This document shows, piece by piece, positions 24,167 through 34,228 of a DNA stretch of 64,000 nt. The stretch comes from Octopus vulgaris (taxonomy: Eukaryota). The translations under genes and the position numbers were made by a program. The stretch's first letter is position 1; every line of letters begins with the position of its first letter. Location of the stretch: the NCBI GenBank assembly GCA_951406725.2, contig OX597818.1, positions 63,860,001 through 63,924,000 on the forward strand. The letters run 5' to 3'. The notes under the pieces are model-generated. The model was not told the origin of the DNA, ran no database searches, and saw only the letters and a program-made list of their open reading frames with translations.

Positions 24167-25378
24167 CCGTATATTCTAATTTGAACGTGTCTTGTTTTAT
24201 GTGCTGATGTGTAAACTGTAAGTAGAACGGAAATAAATAAAATCTTTAACAGATTAATTAGCAGTAGACACAAGCGTAAATTGATCTTGTGTATGTCACG
24301 AAAATCAGTATTGTTAACCTTTGGCATTTTAAATTAAAATATATATGAAAGTATATTGAAAACTGTGTTGCAATTTTCAGTATATATTTGAATAACTTTC
24401 CAATCAATCAAACATGAACTTTACAGAGAAACATCAAATTTCTCTTATAAAAGTAGGATGACTTAAAGATCTATTTCATTGGAAAGTAATTCTTTTAAAC
24501 TTTACTTTAGATTACGTCTCTGTTACATGTTCTAAATTTGAGAACAGCTGTAATATTAATAGTTTCCTGTTTAATTTCTTAGAAAAGGTTACTTATGCCT
24601 ACGTGCGAATTAATTCAATATTGAAAGGAAATTGGTTTTAACAAGATAACATAAGTAAGTATCTTAAAATTGAGACGTTTCATAGGCAGAAATATTGTAT
24701 ATTGTCTCGTCAATTTAAAATGAAGCGAGGCGAAATAACTAAGTGTAACTGGAAATCGCTAGGAAGAAATCAGCTGCTGACAATCAGTGAACTGTAGCAT
24801 GAATACGTTTCCAATGTTCGTGTCTTATTCTTATATTGTTTATGAGCAAGACACTTTAATCACTTGAGAAATTACAAAGCACATTTTAGCTGAAACACGC
24901 AAACTATTTTCTCTGTGATTTTGATGCACACTGAACCAATTCAAATCATCTGATCATGCGCGTTAATATTATTATTTTCAAGATTGCAAACGGCAAACAT
25001 GGTAATGATGTCGGACGTAGATTGATAAAAAGTTCTTTTGGCGGTCGTATGCTCTACCTAAACCATCTTACTATGCAAATTTAGTAAGTTTGATTACAAC
25101 AATGATATGTTTAATATGTTTTTTTTTCTCATGTATATTTTTTCTCCACACGGTCAAGAATATATGGGCATCGATGATCGGGGCAAAATTGATTACATAT
25201 AACATTTTATTGTAACTGAATGACTTTACTGAAATGATTTCCACAATATAATTTTCATAAGAAAATGCAATATATGTTCTGCCATAATAAAGTATAACCA
25301 TACGACTCACAAAGGAAAACAAATACATTTTGCGCATATATACGTTGTACGTTGTGTATAACTGTGTTTAAGAAAGCA

Positions 25379-25459
<81 letters not shown>

Positions 25460-25501
25460 GTATATATGTAAGTATTGTAAGTATTTCATTTATTTCTATA
25501 C

Positions 25502-25567
25502 TTATTTTCTACTGACGAGGAAAAAATCTATGAGATTTCTTCCGAAATTGATTCAATATAGAAATAA
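25502..25567 (+). ncRNA. Complete canonical type I hammerhead ribozyme
   Basis: Helix I TTTCTA/TAGAAA (plus extension); core CTGACGA (25512-18); helix II GGAAAAAATC/GATTTCTTCC (9/10 pairs); GAAA (25544-47); helix III ATTG/CAAT; cleavage triplet AUA (cut after 25558). Confidence 0.8.
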
Positions 25568-25817
25568 CGAAGTTCTTTGAAAAATCCTGTTGGCTAGCTT
25601 TCCTCGATTTCAGCACAACTTATTTCTGTAGTGGGTATATAATAATATGTGGAAATTGACGAATTAAAAGTCGGTTATCAGCATATTGGCAGAGAAATAA
25701 TTTTCTTTTGCACTTGTTTATAAGATGTTTATAATTTTAACCTTTAGAGGCATTTTAAAATGCTGCCACTTTTTTAATAGAATTTTTTTCTGTAAAAATC
25801 TTCTTCCTATAATAGTA

Positions 25818-25867
<50 letters not shown>

Positions 25868-26194
25868 ATTATATTAAATTAGAGATAAAACTACTATTAG
25901 ACAAATCAAACATATATATATATATATATATTTATAAGTTTACATTATTAATTTAAATAATTTTTTAAATCTTAACTTTCATTTAAATATTTTAATTTGG
26001 AATTTTATTTTTTATATTTTTTATATATTTTATTAATTAATTTTGTTTCTATGTATTGGCTTATGATTTTCACTGTTTGATTTGCCTAATAGTGGTTTTA
26101 TCTCTAACTTAATATAATATATATATATATTTATACTATAAAATTAGATTTAATTCTAAATTTAATTTTTCCCTGTAAGTTTGGATTTGCTCCC

Positions 26195-26240
<46 letters not shown>

Positions 26241-26241
<1 letters not shown>

Positions 26242-26608
26242 CGGGAGGCTTTATGAAAATAAACAAAAGACGAAGGCAGGTGGAAAACAAACGAACAATT
26301 GTATTAGTATGGCGCTCAGGAAATATAAATAAAACAAGTCTTTAACGTTTCGAGCCTACGCTCTTCAACAGAAAGATACACAGAGAGAGAAAAACACAGA
26401 AAGAAGGAGAGAAAAAAATGCGTGCAGTAGCTAACGAATCAACATGGCGATCTGATTTCGGCCAGAGGTCAAAGATCAAACATGAGACGCGAGAGCGAAA
26501 TAAGGGGAGATAATAGGGTTGATAAAAGGGTTGAGGGACCAGCTAAAAGTGCGTGGGAGGGGTCTGGATGTGTGTATGTATAGGGTTGGTGTATGTATTA
26601 GTATGTAT

Positions 26609-26645
<37 letters not shown>

Positions 26646-27510
26646 AGAGAGTATTAGAGCGTAAGATTGGTCTGGACGTGCGTATGTATGGGGTTGGTGT
26701 ATGTATTAGTATGTATTAGTATGTATTAGTACGTATTGGTATGTATAGGTGTCTGTGTGTGTGTGTGAGAGAGTATATAAGTGCGTATGCGGGTCTGGAC
26801 ATGTGTATGTATAGGGTTGGTGTAAGTATTAGTATGTACTAGTATGTATTAGTACGTATTAGTATGTATTAGTTGGTGTGTGTATTAGTATGGCACATCA
26901 TATGTGATGTGATGTGTAAAGTCATGTGGTGTAGTGAGGAGAAGAGGGGGAGGGGAAGAAGAGGGGGAGGGGGAGAAGGAAAGGGAGAGAAGGGGAGGGG
27001 AAGAAGAGGGGGAGGAGAAGGGGGCGAGGAGAGGATGGGGGAGAAGGAAGGGGATGAGGGGGATGAAGGAGGAAAGAGGGAGAGGGGGAGAGAGAAGGGG
27101 AGAGAGGGAGTGAGGGAGCAGAGGGAAGGGGAAGAGGGAGGGAGAAAGAGGGAAGAAGGGAAGGGGAGTAGGGGTGAAAGGATGAAGGACTGAAGAAGTA
27201 GGGGTCGGGGGAGAAAGGATAGGTGAGGAGGGGGAGAGGGGGTTAGATGAGGAGGGGGGAGAGTTGAGACCAAATGGCGTATAAGAGCGAAGAGAGAAGA
27301 TTAATTCCTGTTCACGGCGCAAACGGGAATCCGGATGGCCTCTGTGTAAGGACAAACCGAACACAGATAGGTGTTGCAAGGAGTGACCGGTGGAGCGGAA
27401 ATGGCGTGAGACCGGTGTGTCGTTCGCAAGGTGGATGTCACGAAGGTGTTCCGCGAACCGGTCAGCCAAGCGGCGTCCCGTTTGTCCGATGTACAAGGAA
27501 TTGCAGAGGG
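26241..27510 (-). repeat. 3' pseudo-LTR copy (GIY-YIG end + 3' UTR)
   Basis: Near-identical to 30770-31985 apart from a ~54-bp net indel, mostly in the purine tract, and a few substitutions. Confidence 0.9.
26339..26376 (-). ncRNA. Variant minimal hammerhead motif in the 3' pLTR
   Basis: Minus strand TCTTT-CTGTTGAA-GAGC-GTAG-GCTC-GAAA-CGTT-AAAGA: 5-bp helix I, 4-bp helix II, palindromic AACGTT; core has A6U. Confidence 0.6.
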
Positions 27511-30148
27511 AGCAAGAGATGCAATAGATAATATTGCTGGAGGTGCAGGTGAAGGAGTGGATGATGGGATAGGGTCGATGGTGGGTGCTAGTGAGGCGGG
27601 TGGTGTTGGAGAGGTAAGGGCAAGTGCGGCAACGTGGGCGGGAGCAGGGGAACGAGCCGGGTTGGGAGGTAGGGTCAGGGAAGGAGCTATGGACCAAAAT
27701 GTCTCGAAGGTTGTGGGCTCGTTTGAAAGAGGGGAGGGGTCGGTTAGGGAAGAGGTGTGAAGTGGACGGGTTGGACTGGAGATGACGGAAAGCTCGAAGA
27801 ATGGTGCGTTGGAGACGTAGGGTCGTGGGGTGGTAAGTGAGGGGAAAATGGAGGCGGGAGACTACAGGGCGGGTTCGGGGAGAGAGAGCAGATACACGGT
27901 CCACGGACCGTGCTCTGGCAAGGGCGGTGTGGATAGTGGTGAGGGGGTATCCACGTAGGGTGAAGTGGTGAGCCATACGTTGAGACTGAGTCTCAAAGTC
28001 ATGGTCGTCACTACAGAGCCTACGTAGACGGAGGAATTGGGAATAGGGGATGGAAAGCTTGGTGTGTTCTGGGTGGGAGGAAGAGAAGTTGAGGTATGAG
28101 TGTGAGTCTGTGTGTTTGTAGTGAATGGAGGTGGTAAGAGTGGAGTGAAGAATGCTAACCGAAATGTCGAGGAAGGAGACAGAGGTGTTGGAGATAGTGG
28201 AAGTGAAGTGGAGGGCTGGATGGAAAGATTGGACGAAAGAGATGAAGGAATCTAGATGTTCGCGGGAGAGTGAGGTGGCACCGATAATGTCGTCAATATA
28301 ACGACCATATAGTTCAGGAGTGGGACCAGTGAAATTAGAGAATATTTGGGCCTCAACATAGCCAACGAACAGGTTCGCATAGTTGGGGCCCATTCGCGTT
28401 CCCATGGCCACTCCAGAGACCTGATGGTAGAACTCGCCCGCGAACGAGAAGCAGTTCAGAGTAAGGACAAGTTCGGCCAGACGAATGAGTGTGGAGGTGT
28501 CAGGTACAGGGTTAGAGCGGAGGTCAAGAAAGTGTCGAAGGGCCTGCAGTCCTTCGTGGTGAGGGATAACAGTATAGAGGCTTTGGATGTCCATAGTAAA
28601 AAGGATTTTGGAGGAGCCGGGAGGAAAGGAGAAAGAGTTGAAAAGCCGGAGAGCATGGTTGGTATCGTGGATGTGGGAGGGAAGAGATGCCACTAGGGGG
28701 GCAAGGACACGGTCGAGGTATTTAGAGATGAGCTCCGTGGGGCAGTTACAGGCGGAGACGATGGGGCGGCCAGGGTTGTTGGGTTTGTGGATTTTGGGGA
28801 GGAAGTAAATGGTGGGGGTACGTGGGGTTCGCACAATTAGGTTGGATGCGGTGCGGGGGAGACGGGAGGACGAGATGAGGTCTTGGACAGTAGAGGATAC
28901 CGTCTGTTGGTAGCTACGTGTGGGGTTAGAGGGCAGAGGGGAATAGAAGGAGGTGTCATTGAGTTGGCGGAAAGCCTCGGCCCTATAGAGGTCCGCGCGC
29001 CACACCACTACAGCTCCACCCTTGTCAGCCGGTTTGATGATAATGTCAGCGCGCCGTTGGAGGGAACGAAGAGCCAAGAGCTCAGCCGGGGAGATGTTGA
29101 GGCGGCGTTGGCGCCTGGAGAAGTTGAACCGCTCCAATGCACGCTGACAAGCGCCCGCGAAAAGATCCACTGCTAGGATCTGGCCAGGGGCAGGCTTCCA
29201 CGGGGATGGTCGGCGGCCCAGGCCAGTGAAGCAGTCGTCCTCTTCGTTGGGTGTGGGTGGCGAGTCGTGGTAATGCGCACCCAACCGGACACGGCGCACA
29301 AAGCTGTGGACATCAACTCGCGTCTGGAATTCCTTACAGGATGGAGTGAGGGGGATGAAACGCAGACCCCTACCAAGGACGGAGCGTTCAGCCGCAGAGA
29401 GGGGAAGATCGGGGGGAATGGTAACAACAGACGGAAGTGGAGAAGGGGTGGATGGAATAGAAGTAGGAGGGGTGGTAGGTCTCGTGGAGGTCTGAGGGGA
29501 GGGATTGGAGAGGTGTGTGGGGGGTGGTTGGGCGGGGCAGTAGGGTTAGGTGTAGGTGGATGGAGCCTAACGGGAGGGGAGAAGGGGTTGTAGGGAGGGG
29601 CAGTGGGGTTAGGTGTGGGTGGATGGAGCCTATCGGGAGGGGAGAAGGGTGGTGGAGGAGTTGGGGTAGTGGCGTCGGGTAGGGTGGAATGGAAGAGTGA
29701 TTGGAGTTTACGAAGTTTGGTATCAGAAAGAAATTGATGGAAGAGTTGATTCAAATGGATAATGAAGCGTAGCGTGTTTGGAGCATAGAGAGGCGGCAGA
29801 GAGGAGAAGAAGGTGGAGAAAGCAGGAGGAAGAAGGCGGTTGATGGCATGTAGTTTGGAGAGATTGGAGCGAATGGTAGCCCGCATAAGGCGGTAAGATG
29901 TGGTGCGGAGTATGGGTAAGATGGAAGAATCCGAGTGGAGAGCAGGGTGGAAGTGGAGGCGGAAACCTTTAGGGATGAGTCGGTGATGTAGGCAGCGGCT
30001 TAGGAAAGAGACATGGCTAGAGAAGCGGGTTTTTTAAAAGAAGTAGAGAGAGATTAACGGACGGCTGAAGGCAATATACAGGAAGCGAACGTAGATGATC
30101 CTTCAAACGGTGATGGAGGGTGAGGAGGTAGGACCTAGGATCCGGCAT
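26885..30148 (-). pseudogene. Penelope-like RT/GIY-YIG polyprotein (~1088 codons reconstructed; 2 frameshifts near 30030 and 29520; the last ~885 codons are one open frame)
   Basis: N-terminus FLSRCLHHRLIPKGF and VLGRGLRFIP; RT IKPADKG, YFLPKIHK..GRPIVS, DIQSLYT, GVAMGTRMGPNYANLF, RYIDD, FLD; linker CSRPRCRTC; endonuclease NIIYCISCSLCNSLYIGQTGRRLADRFAEH..HF..H..EQELI..PFGLN. Confidence 0.93.
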
Positions 30149-30769
30149 GATGGGATAGCGGGAAAAAAACGTTCGAAAAACCAAAAAAAACAAAAAACAA
30201 AAATTATCGTATGAAAAAAATAGAAAAAAAGGATAGCGAAAAAAGGGGAAAAAACAAACGTTCAAAAAAACAAAAAAATAATAATCGTATGAAAAAACTA
30301 GATAAATAAGCGATAGGGGCAGAAAAGACGGGGCAAACGGAAAAGGGAAAGAAAGAAGGGAAGCAGAGAGAGGGGAGGCAAAAAAGGGGGGTGCAGGCAG
30401 AGGAAACGGAGTATGGACATCCAGAGAGGGAAGAATGACGGAAAGGAGAACAAAAATTCAGGAAAATGTGGGAAGCATGAAATGAATGTAAAAAAAGTGG
30501 TAATATAAGAGGAAATAAAAATACAACAAACGGGACAGTTTATGCGAACAAGTTCAAGGTTGAAAGTTCAAGGTGAGAAATGTGTAGACGTCGTGGTATA
30601 TTTTTTAAGGATTTCACATCAATGCAAAGTCACTTTGATCCGCGAAAGAGAGGTGCAGCCAATGGTAAGTATCCAAGAGGTAAAGAAAATCCAAGGTAGA
30701 GGTAAGTGTTGATAGTGGTATTGGTAGAATATAGGATGAAAGTGAGACCACGTGAGCGCATAATATATA

Positions 30770-31138
30770 ACGGGAAGCTTTATGAAAATAAACAAAAGAC
30801 GAAGGCAGGTGGAAAACAAACGAACAATTGTATTAGTATGGCGCTCAGGAAATATAAATAAAACAAGTCTTTAACGTTTCGAGCCTACGCTCTTAAACAG
30901 AAAGATACACAGAGAGAGAAAAACACAGAAAGAAGGAGAGAAAAAAATGCGTGCAGTAGCTAACGAATCAACATGGCGATCTGATTTCGGCCAGAGGTCA
31001 AAGATCAAACATGAGACGCGAGAGCGAAATAAGGGGAGATAATAGGGTTGATAAAAGGGTTGAGGGACCAGCTAAAAGTGCGTGGGAGGGGTCTGGATGT
31101 GTGTATGTATAGGGTTGGTGTATGTATTAGTATGTATA

Positions 31139-31175
<37 letters not shown>

Positions 31176-31985
31176 AGAGAGTATTAGTGCGTAAGATTGG
31201 TCTGGACGTGCGTATGTATGGGGTTGGTGTATGTATTAGTATGTATTAGTATGTATTAGTACGTATTGGTATGTATAGGTGTCTGTGTGTGTGTGTGAGA
31301 GAGTATATAAGTGCGTATGCGGGTCTGGACGTGTGTATGTATAGGGTTGGTGTAAGTATTAGTATGTACTAGTATGTATTAGTACGTATTAGTATGTATT
31401 AGTTGGTGTGTGTATTAGTATGGCACATCATATGTGATGTGATGTGTAAAGTCATGTGGTGTAGTGAGGAGAAGAGGGGGAGGGGGAGGAGAAGGGGGGA
31501 GAGGAGAGGATGGGGAGAAGGAAGGGGATGAGGGGGATGAAGGAGAAAAGAGGGAGAGGGGGAGAGAGAAGGGGAGAGAGGGAGTGAGGGAGCAGAGGGA
31601 AGGGGAAGAGGGAGGGAGAAAGAGGGAAGAAGGGAAGGGGAGTAGGGGTGAAAGGAAGAAGGACTGAAGAAGTAGGGGTCGGGGGGAGAAAGGATAGGTG
31701 AGGAGGGGGGAGAGGGGGTTAGATGAGGAGGGGGAGAGTTGAGACCAAATGGCGTATAAGAGCGAAGAGAGAAGATTAATTCCTGTTCACGGCGCAAACG
31801 GGAATCCGGATGGCCTCTGTGTAAGGACAAACCGAACACAGATAGGTGTTGCAAGGAGTGACCGGTGGAGCGGAAATGGCGTGAGACCGGTGTGTCGTTC
31901 GCAAGATGGATGTCACGAAGGTGTTCCGCGAACCGGTCAGCCAAGCGGCGTCCCGTTTGTCCGATGTACAAGGAATTGCAGAGGG
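30770..31985 (-). repeat. Upstream 5'-truncated copy / 5' pseudo-LTR
   Basis: Encodes SLCNSLYIGQTG..PFGLN again (ORF 31399-32031); truncated at (TA)n at 31986. Confidence 0.9.
30868..30905 (-). ncRNA. Variant minimal hammerhead motif in the 5' pLTR (additional core mutation)
   Basis: Same as 26339-26376 but the core reads CTGTTTAA (G8U, position 30895). Confidence 0.5.
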
Positions 31986-33656: not shown

Positions 33657-34228
33657 AAGGCGGCGAGCTGTCAGAAACGTTAGCACGGCGGGCGAAATGC
33701 TTAGCGGTATTTCGTCTGCCGCTACGTTCTGAGTTCAAATTCCACCGAGGTCGACTTTGCCCTTCATCCTTTCGGGGTCGATTAAATAAGTACCAGTTAC
33801 GCACTGGGGTCGATGTAATCGAGTTAATCCGTTTGCCTCTCCTTATTTGTCCTCTCTGTGTTTAGACCCTTGTGGGTAGTAAAGAAATAGGTATCTCGTC
33901 TGCCGCTACGTTCTGAGTTCAAATTCCACCGAGGTCGACTTTGCCTTTCATACTTTCGGGATCGATTAAATAAGTACCAGTTACGCACTGGGGTCGATGT
34001 AATCGAGTTAATCCGTTTGTCCTCTCTGCGTTTAGCCCCTTGTGGGTAGTTAAGAAATAGGTATTTCGTCTGCTGCTGCGTACTGAGTTAAAATTCTACC
34101 GAGGTCGACTTTGCCTTTCATCCTTTCGGGGTCGATTAAATAACTAGCAATTGAATACTGGGGTTCATACAATCGATTCATCCCCTCCCCGAAAATTGCT
34201 GCCCCTGTGACAAAATTTGAAAGCGTTA
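33657..34228 (+). mobile_element. SINE family A with three tandem body units
   Basis: GGTAT(T/C)TCGTCTG..GAGTT(C/A)AAATTC..GTCGACTTTGCC repeated at ~33707, 33890 and 34060. Confidence 0.85.

Follow-up and report, generated by a model that had tools for sequence, protein, structure and literature searches.

A solo, 5'-truncated copy of a 510-nt hammerhead repeat in Octopus vulgaris: a likely non-autonomous retrozyme copied by Penelope-type enzymes

The window, by which we mean the whole stretch of 64,000 nt of Octopus vulgaris DNA that was analysed, contains an insert on the plus strand within a (TA)n microsatellite target, which lies at 25378-25467 on the left and at 25820-25860 on the right. 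The insert (25476-25819) is a 5'-truncated solo copy of a repeat unit of about 510 nt, termed family A. Homology to the unit begins at 25476, which corresponds to unit position 164, so that the copy covers unit positions ~164-510. The truncation junction (25467-25484) contains a 9-nt direct duplication (25467-25475 and 25476-25484). Family A has two fixed termini: an inner one at unit ~419 (25719-25728), which is not used by the window copy, and an outer one at unit ~510 (25810-25819), 91 nt further on, at which the window copy ends. Both termini resemble TATWAGTWGT, a candidate reverse-transcription start signal. The ends of the sister family B (see below) fit this motif less well.

Two further insertions follow on the right. 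The first (25860-26200, plus strand) is an unrelated AT-rich repeat, which is not part of the unit; it carries an inverted arm and has an end that adjoins TA. The best 40 of 1383 candidates of its family are 92-96% identical apart from the self match. The family has a fixed end next to TA and an inverted arm; neither a hammerhead nor an ORF was found in 30 loci. The second is a young Penelope-like element (PLE) on the minus strand (26241-31985), which belongs to the context of the insert. An 886-codon frame (26885-29545, minus strand) encodes its reverse transcriptase (RT), Zn linker and GIY-YIG domain. This domain order fits the Neptune type, with the RT matched by Pfam and the linker and GIY-YIG domain read by eye from the translation; on the basis of domain order, the element is called Neptune/Nematis-type. 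A partial upstream copy of the element is located at ~30766-31985 (minus strand). The element has its own minimal hammerhead (~26339-26376, minus strand) with the core box CUGUUGA (U for A6) and an extra A, identical in 40 copies. The upstream copy shows one further core change near 30880-30915. Among the 18 visible 5' truncations of this family (L140-L169), six cluster 208-215 nt from the 3' end. The end of the element at 26241 is 421 bp away from the insert on the opposite strand, which agrees with the distance of about 420 bp to an autonomous Neptune element given in an earlier, sequence-only reading of this DNA. Elsewhere in the window, 2.5 copies of a 184-bp tandem of another dispersed repeat are found (33706-34143).

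The type I hammerhead motif at 25499-25571 of the plus strand, which comprises the core and three helices, is real. Its core boxes, CTGACGA (25512-25518) and GAAA (25544-25547), were read from the sequence, and both A15.1-U16.1 and the NUH site are present alongside CUGANGA and GAAA. The cleavage triplet is ATA, and the cut is predicted after 25558. Helix I is open-ended and pairs TTTCTA (25506-25511) with TAGAAA (25559-25564) over 6 bp. Helix II (25519-25543, with the pair G25519-C25543) consists of 4 bp, one A.C mismatch and 5-6 more bp, with a loop of 3-5 nt. Helix III pairs ATTG with CAAT (25547-25550 with 25554-25557; 4 bp, loop ATT). All conserved core bases that the sequence-only reading had listed are therefore in place. 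The three helices it had described as formed can indeed pair (6, 4+6 and 4 bp), but the hammerhead fold is not the predicted ground state. A type I descriptor found this motif as the sole match on both strands of the 64-kb window at three stringencies, for which 200 block-wise dinucleotide shuffles yielded chance levels of 0.03, 0.005 and 0.0 matches per window. By contrast, the hammerhead covariance models that had been suggested as a check did not return it: Rfam models gave no match at gathering score in the 64-kb window and no hammerhead family among the 26 matches at E<=10 in 25300-26300. That the Rfam models miss the motif is no evidence against it.

The insert belongs to an abundant dispersed family. 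A search of the octopus genome itself (2.8 Gb) revealed long matches in all of the best 40 of 2003 candidates, which are 87-90% identical apart from the self match. A 25-mer word of the ribozyme has 339 exact matches in the genome and its reversed control none, and the copy number of family A is given here as at least 339 hammerhead copies, counted by this exact 25-mer. Fourteen full copies measure 489-518 nt with a mean identity of 90%, and family-A copies reach farther 5' than the insert in the window. The 350 bp of the insert are hence a truncation length, i.e. the 3' two-thirds of the unit, and not the unit size. The sequence-only reading was right about the TA runs on both sides of a 350-bp insert, while its unit of ~350 bp has to be replaced by one of ~510 nt. 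Likewise, the genome-wide tandem copies of ~350 bp for which it proposed to search turned out to be a dispersed family with partial tandems, a ~510-nt unit and no long arrays.

The ribozyme core is conserved among the paralogues. CUGANGA is present in 28 and GAAA in 27 of 30 paralogues, and variation within the core is greatest at the free position N7 (A in 20, C in 8, G in 1 and T in 1 of 30). As helices I and II also covary (see below), the loss of core and pairings among paralogues, which would have spoken against a ribozyme, did not occur. No RT or endonuclease (EN) ORF is contiguous with any family-A copy checked, and the same holds for the copies of families B and C, so that the extension into an own RT ORF envisaged by the sequence-only reading was found in none of the three families. 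The longest frames in the 14 full copies (53-115 aa) are near or somewhat above those of shuffles (median 54, 95th percentile 86), and family B does not preserve them. A coding frame across the unit junction was discarded for the same reasons, as its length does not clearly exceed that of shuffled sequence and family B lacks it. In one locus (L069), a piece of the unit precedes a GIY-YIG frame; it was considered as a link to an ORF and rejected, being a 42-bp fragment at a junction and a single case.

In families A and B, the hammerhead is bracketed by splice-like motifs, a donor-like one (25476-25484 in the window) and an acceptor-like one (25730-25755). The donor-like GTAAGT sits just 5' of the ribozyme, and the acceptor-like block lies between the two termini. 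In most family-C copies displayed, the donor-like motif reads GTGAGT. No spliced joint was detected for families A and B among the joints listed for contigs from guessed-RNA or unlabelled sequencing runs. One such contig spans the unit end-to-start junction, a junction that also exists in DNA; the sequencing data are assembled contigs only and cannot show starts, ends, strand or circles. Predicted circular folds of eight family-A copies had z values of -1.7 to -4.9 against 20 mononucleotide shuffles each, which is a weak control.

Two sister families share the layout of family A. Family B (L102-L131) has a unit of 468 nt, is younger (95.5% mean identity) and shows 58% global identity to family A. 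It ends at 392 and 468, i.e. at two points 76 nt apart. Family C (L170-L204) has a unit of ~490 nt and 202 pattern matches and includes full dimers, e.g. L200. A comparison of families A and B revealed substitutions in both partners of the pairs I.1, I.2, I.4, II.3 and II.4, all of which retain their pairing, and in one partner of I.3. The U.U/A.A loop of helix I and the A.A loop of helix II are preserved. These internal loops presumably provide the tertiary contact of type I hammerheads. The covariation parse comprised 47 A, 35 B and 41 C motifs and used a pattern in which the helix III stem was obligatory, so that it cannot test this stem; the stem is identical in A and B and gives no covariation. 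In a 14-row alignment, helix I is paired in 92.6% of cells, a value reached by none of 500 shuffles; helix II of family B, which is off by one column there, was left out of the count. Strict intactness was found for 28 of 47 A and 24 of 35 B motifs and for only 8 of 41 C motifs, the low rate in C being due to a bulge or mismatch at the helix II base. The covariation between families, which comes from three related families and thus few independent events, indicates that the hammerhead fold has been under selection in the source elements. For bench work, family B is a better substrate than the window copy.

The window copy itself has aged. It differs from the column majority of the 14 full copies at 26 of 344 aligned positions. 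Private changes at 25500 and 25502 disrupt two distal helix I pairs, and further private changes at 25538-25539 replace the A.A internal loop of helix II that families A and B keep; this form of helix II occurs only once in the genome. In the lowest-energy predicted fold, the upstream strand 25490-25500 pairs with 25557-25567 (11 bp) and buries the cleavage site. The competing strand occurs across family A, with a pairing that is 1 bp longer in the window copy. The hammerhead fold is predicted to lie 6.8 kcal/mol above the best fold with the upstream sequence and 2.0 kcal/mol above it without this sequence; in family A, where 29 of 30 copies could be parsed, this gap ranges from 2.0 to 7.3 kcal/mol. 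Furthermore, helix III is self-complementary, which is a dimer-type feature; the folding energies calculated are +1.8 kcal/mol for the hairpin and -6.7 kcal/mol for the two-strand duplex.

These data bear on the proposal that the window copy cuts efficiently by itself, as a monomer ribozyme, and serves a function at its locus today, which we consider doubtful. The core is wholly intact, and the 4-bp helix III exceeds the 1-2 bp typical of canonical animal hammerheads (PMC4209133). In addition, single-ribozyme constructs from coral and mussel cleave at 0.8 and 0.1 per min (PMC7229834). However, the private changes in helices I and II, the unfavourable energy gap and the preference of helix III for a duplex argue against efficient cutting by this copy, and among Xenopus retrozyme dimers, only one of nine tested cleaved (10.64898/2026.07.22.740005). 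The monomer competence and activity claimed at first thus seem a weaker proposition for the window copy than for intact family members. For the latter, monomer cutting is plausible by analogy, because canonical animal hammerheads with a helix III of only 1-2 bp can cut as single motifs (PMC4209133, PMC7229834) and helix III has 4 bp here. A solo copy like that in the window is unable to release a monomer; it could cut once at most and would be a dead end. A single hammerhead motif is ordinary for this genome.

How the copies were inserted can be read from their ends. Insertion anatomy was determined for 62 non-redundant insertions from 71 loci, which were the top BLAST or pattern matches for queries whose last position was unit 510. 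Outer arm ends number 87 in total, of which 73 fall at two points, unit ~510 (51, a number inflated by this choice of queries) or unit ~419 (22), and 58 of these 73 fixed ends adjoin a TA run. Head-to-tail junctions were present in 21 of the 62 insertions. In all 21, unit position 1 is preceded by the end of the unit itself and never by ORF sequence. The longest same-direction run comprises ~1.7 units, and long tandem arrays, on which the usual definition of retrozymes is based, were not seen among the 62 insertions. Two or more successive units that each carry a hammerhead are not found in the window copy, but in about 3 of 62 family-A insertions (L031, L032, L095), which have two direct ribozymes, and in family-C dimers such as L200. 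Inverted arms occur in 25 of 62 insertions, and 14 of these 25 join a 419 end to a 510 end. The 5' ends are scattered; one arm begins at 249, and there is no cluster at the predicted cut (unit ~251), which argues against the cut linear monomer as the main template. In a test for re-reading of a circle, arms of the same insertion were each other's closest match in only three of nine family-A tandems.

Taken as a whole, the insertions display two fixed 3' ends, partial tandems, inverted 5' copies, 5' truncation and a microsatellite target, all of which are features of Penelope-type insertion. The proposal of a (TA)n-targeting, non-autonomous family of the retrozyme or Penelope type is thus supported by the TA-abutting ends and the lack of an ORF. 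We conclude with good confidence that the insert is an aged solo copy, truncated at its 5' end, of a dispersed non-coding repeat of ~510 nt with a canonical type I hammerhead, and that this repeat is likely a non-autonomous retrozyme for which a Penelope-like RT/GIY-YIG enzyme acts in trans. In the proposed mechanism, a Penelope-type endonuclease would nick the (TA)n target, and reverse transcription would begin inside the RNA at unit ~510, as in the window copy, or at ~419. From there it would run back through the ribozyme site, frequently pass the unit junction as well, and halt at scattered points, in the window copy at ~164. Since the unit junction is crossed, the template would be either circular or a multimer that has not been cut. 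Only a few source loci have two direct copies; there the hammerhead would act and release a 510-nt monomer, which a host ligase could close. The helper would be one of several TA-targeting autonomous families in the genome.

The unit shares properties with three known groups of elements. Like animal non-LTR retrozymes, it is non-coding, AT-rich and a few hundred bases long, carries a canonical type I hammerhead, occurs as head-to-tail copies and dispersed monomers without an LTR, and coexists with autonomous Penelope-like elements (PMC7229834; 10.64898/2026.07.22.740005). Its size of 510 nt is above the 150-450 bp reported in PMC7229834 and within the 51-972 bp of 10.64898/2026.07.22.740005. 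In contrast to animal retrozymes, the copies here are nearly all truncated solos or 1.x-mers instead of arrays, and no parent pseudo-LTR (pLTR) was found. Two fixed ends, inverted arms and TA targeting as found here are not described for retrozymes in the available text of PMC7229834 and 10.64898/2026.07.22.740005. These properties are instead familiar from EN+ Penelope-like elements, whose hallmarks are 5' truncation, partial tandems, inverted 5' copies, a tail and a bias for (TA)n (PMC8557442). The tail of such elements is delimited by two internal RT start sites (PMC11167929), and their hammerhead is located near the 3' end (PMC4209133), both as in the unit. However, the unit lacks an RT/EN ORF, and its tail of 91 nt (76 nt in family B) exceeds the 30-40 nt of EN+ Penelope-like elements (PMC8557442, PMC11167929, PMC4209133). 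Moreover, it has a canonical hammerhead with an extended helix I, whereas EN+ Penelope-like elements have the minimal form (PMC4209133). The contrast drawn by the sequence-only reading between minimal hammerheads in PLEs and canonical ones in retrozymes agrees with PMC4209133 and PMC7229834. A third likeness concerns the MRC1 elements of Chlamys, which are also non-autonomous and form pLTR-like partial tandems (PMC8557442). MRC1-type elements share 3' sequence with autonomous families and are mostly without canonical hammerheads (PMC8557442); for the unit, the reverse is true. The unit is best placed among the non-LTR retrozymes, which form a published class of non-autonomous elements of the Penelope type (PMC7229834; 10.64898/2026.07.22.740005). 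A literature search found no description of family A or of cephalopod retrozymes; supplements or Repbase/Dfam could hold the family.

Two rival views concern the origin of the unit and its helper. According to the first, the unit derives its identity from an autonomous Penelope-like element, of which it is the pseudo-LTR and which survives in full length rarely or no longer; the 350 bp are then an ordinary 5'-truncated 3' end. The pattern of truncation, tandem, inversion and tail is that of autonomous elements (PMC8557442), and since the genome DNA searches scored the best 40 candidates each, a parent may have been missed. Nevertheless, this view is improbable. In the 21 cases described above, and likewise in families B and C, unit position 1 follows directly on a unit end, and the autonomous families seen in the genome carry minimal hammerheads and not the canonical form. 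Matches to PLE proteins near copies are separate insertions set off by TA runs. This applies to the family-C dimer L200, which lies 1.7 kb downstream of a PLE ORF and was examined as a possible joined element; a TA-rich minisatellite in between identifies it as an independent insertion. In the part of the autonomous families that was sampled, the neighbouring element and 30 GIY-YIG loci, no homology of the unit to a Penelope-like pLTR was found.

The second view, that the neighbouring Neptune-type family is the specific helper of the unit and both form the helper/parasite pair suggested by the sequence-only reading, has an equally small probability. Both elements use the same (TA)n target and are near each other, and a 13-mer from the unit end recurs ~30 nt into the 5' region of the neighbour (E about 0.06). 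As a terminus, this 13-mer was dismissed, as it ends none of 30 neighbour loci. The two elements share no significant nucleotide similarity, lie on opposite strands and are separated by a third, unrelated insertion. The neighbour is also much younger: at least 40 copies of its family are 100% identical over the last 160 bp, compared with 90% among family-A copies. The 5' junction is visible in 18 loci of the neighbour family, none of which has an inverted arm. Neighbour-like sequence is present within 1.5 kb of three of 28 A, six of 30 B and one of 24 C loci (10 of 82), and units are present in none of 29 neighbour loci, so that the proximity is what a shared TA target gives. Furthermore, the signature of two ends is found in at least one other autonomous family that targets TA. 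This is the 781-codon family (L132, L046-L071), an abundant autonomous Penelope-like family with many intact frames and two TA-abutting 3' ends 39 nt apart, which according to a protein search has many invertebrate relatives. It was also observed to carry a minimal motif that resembles a hammerhead and has a core of the U3-A8 type. Nothing singles out the neighbour as helper, and the 781-codon family fits the signature at least as well.

A retrozyme copied in trans by one of the TA-targeting families is the reading we retain, and it can be extended tentatively. Families A, B and C may represent a superfamily of hammerhead RNA circles of ~470-510 nt without a surviving parent pLTR. The enzyme that copies them would be a Penelope-type dimer, priming simultaneously on the two strands of the target and using two fixed internal sites of the RNA, ~419 for one arm and ~510 for the other. 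Penelope-like helpers have been proposed for animal retrozymes (PMC7229834; 10.64898/2026.07.22.740005). So far, the use of Penelope enzymes by retrozymes has been proposed from co-occurrence and pLTR similarity. The insertion scars of family A, with two fixed starts, paired inverted arms and a TA target, correspond to the reaction that has been demonstrated for Penelope in vitro. If the extended proposal is true, the ends of the copies name the RNA sites that the helper enzyme must recognise, and this would make the mobilisation of retrozymes directly testable in vitro.
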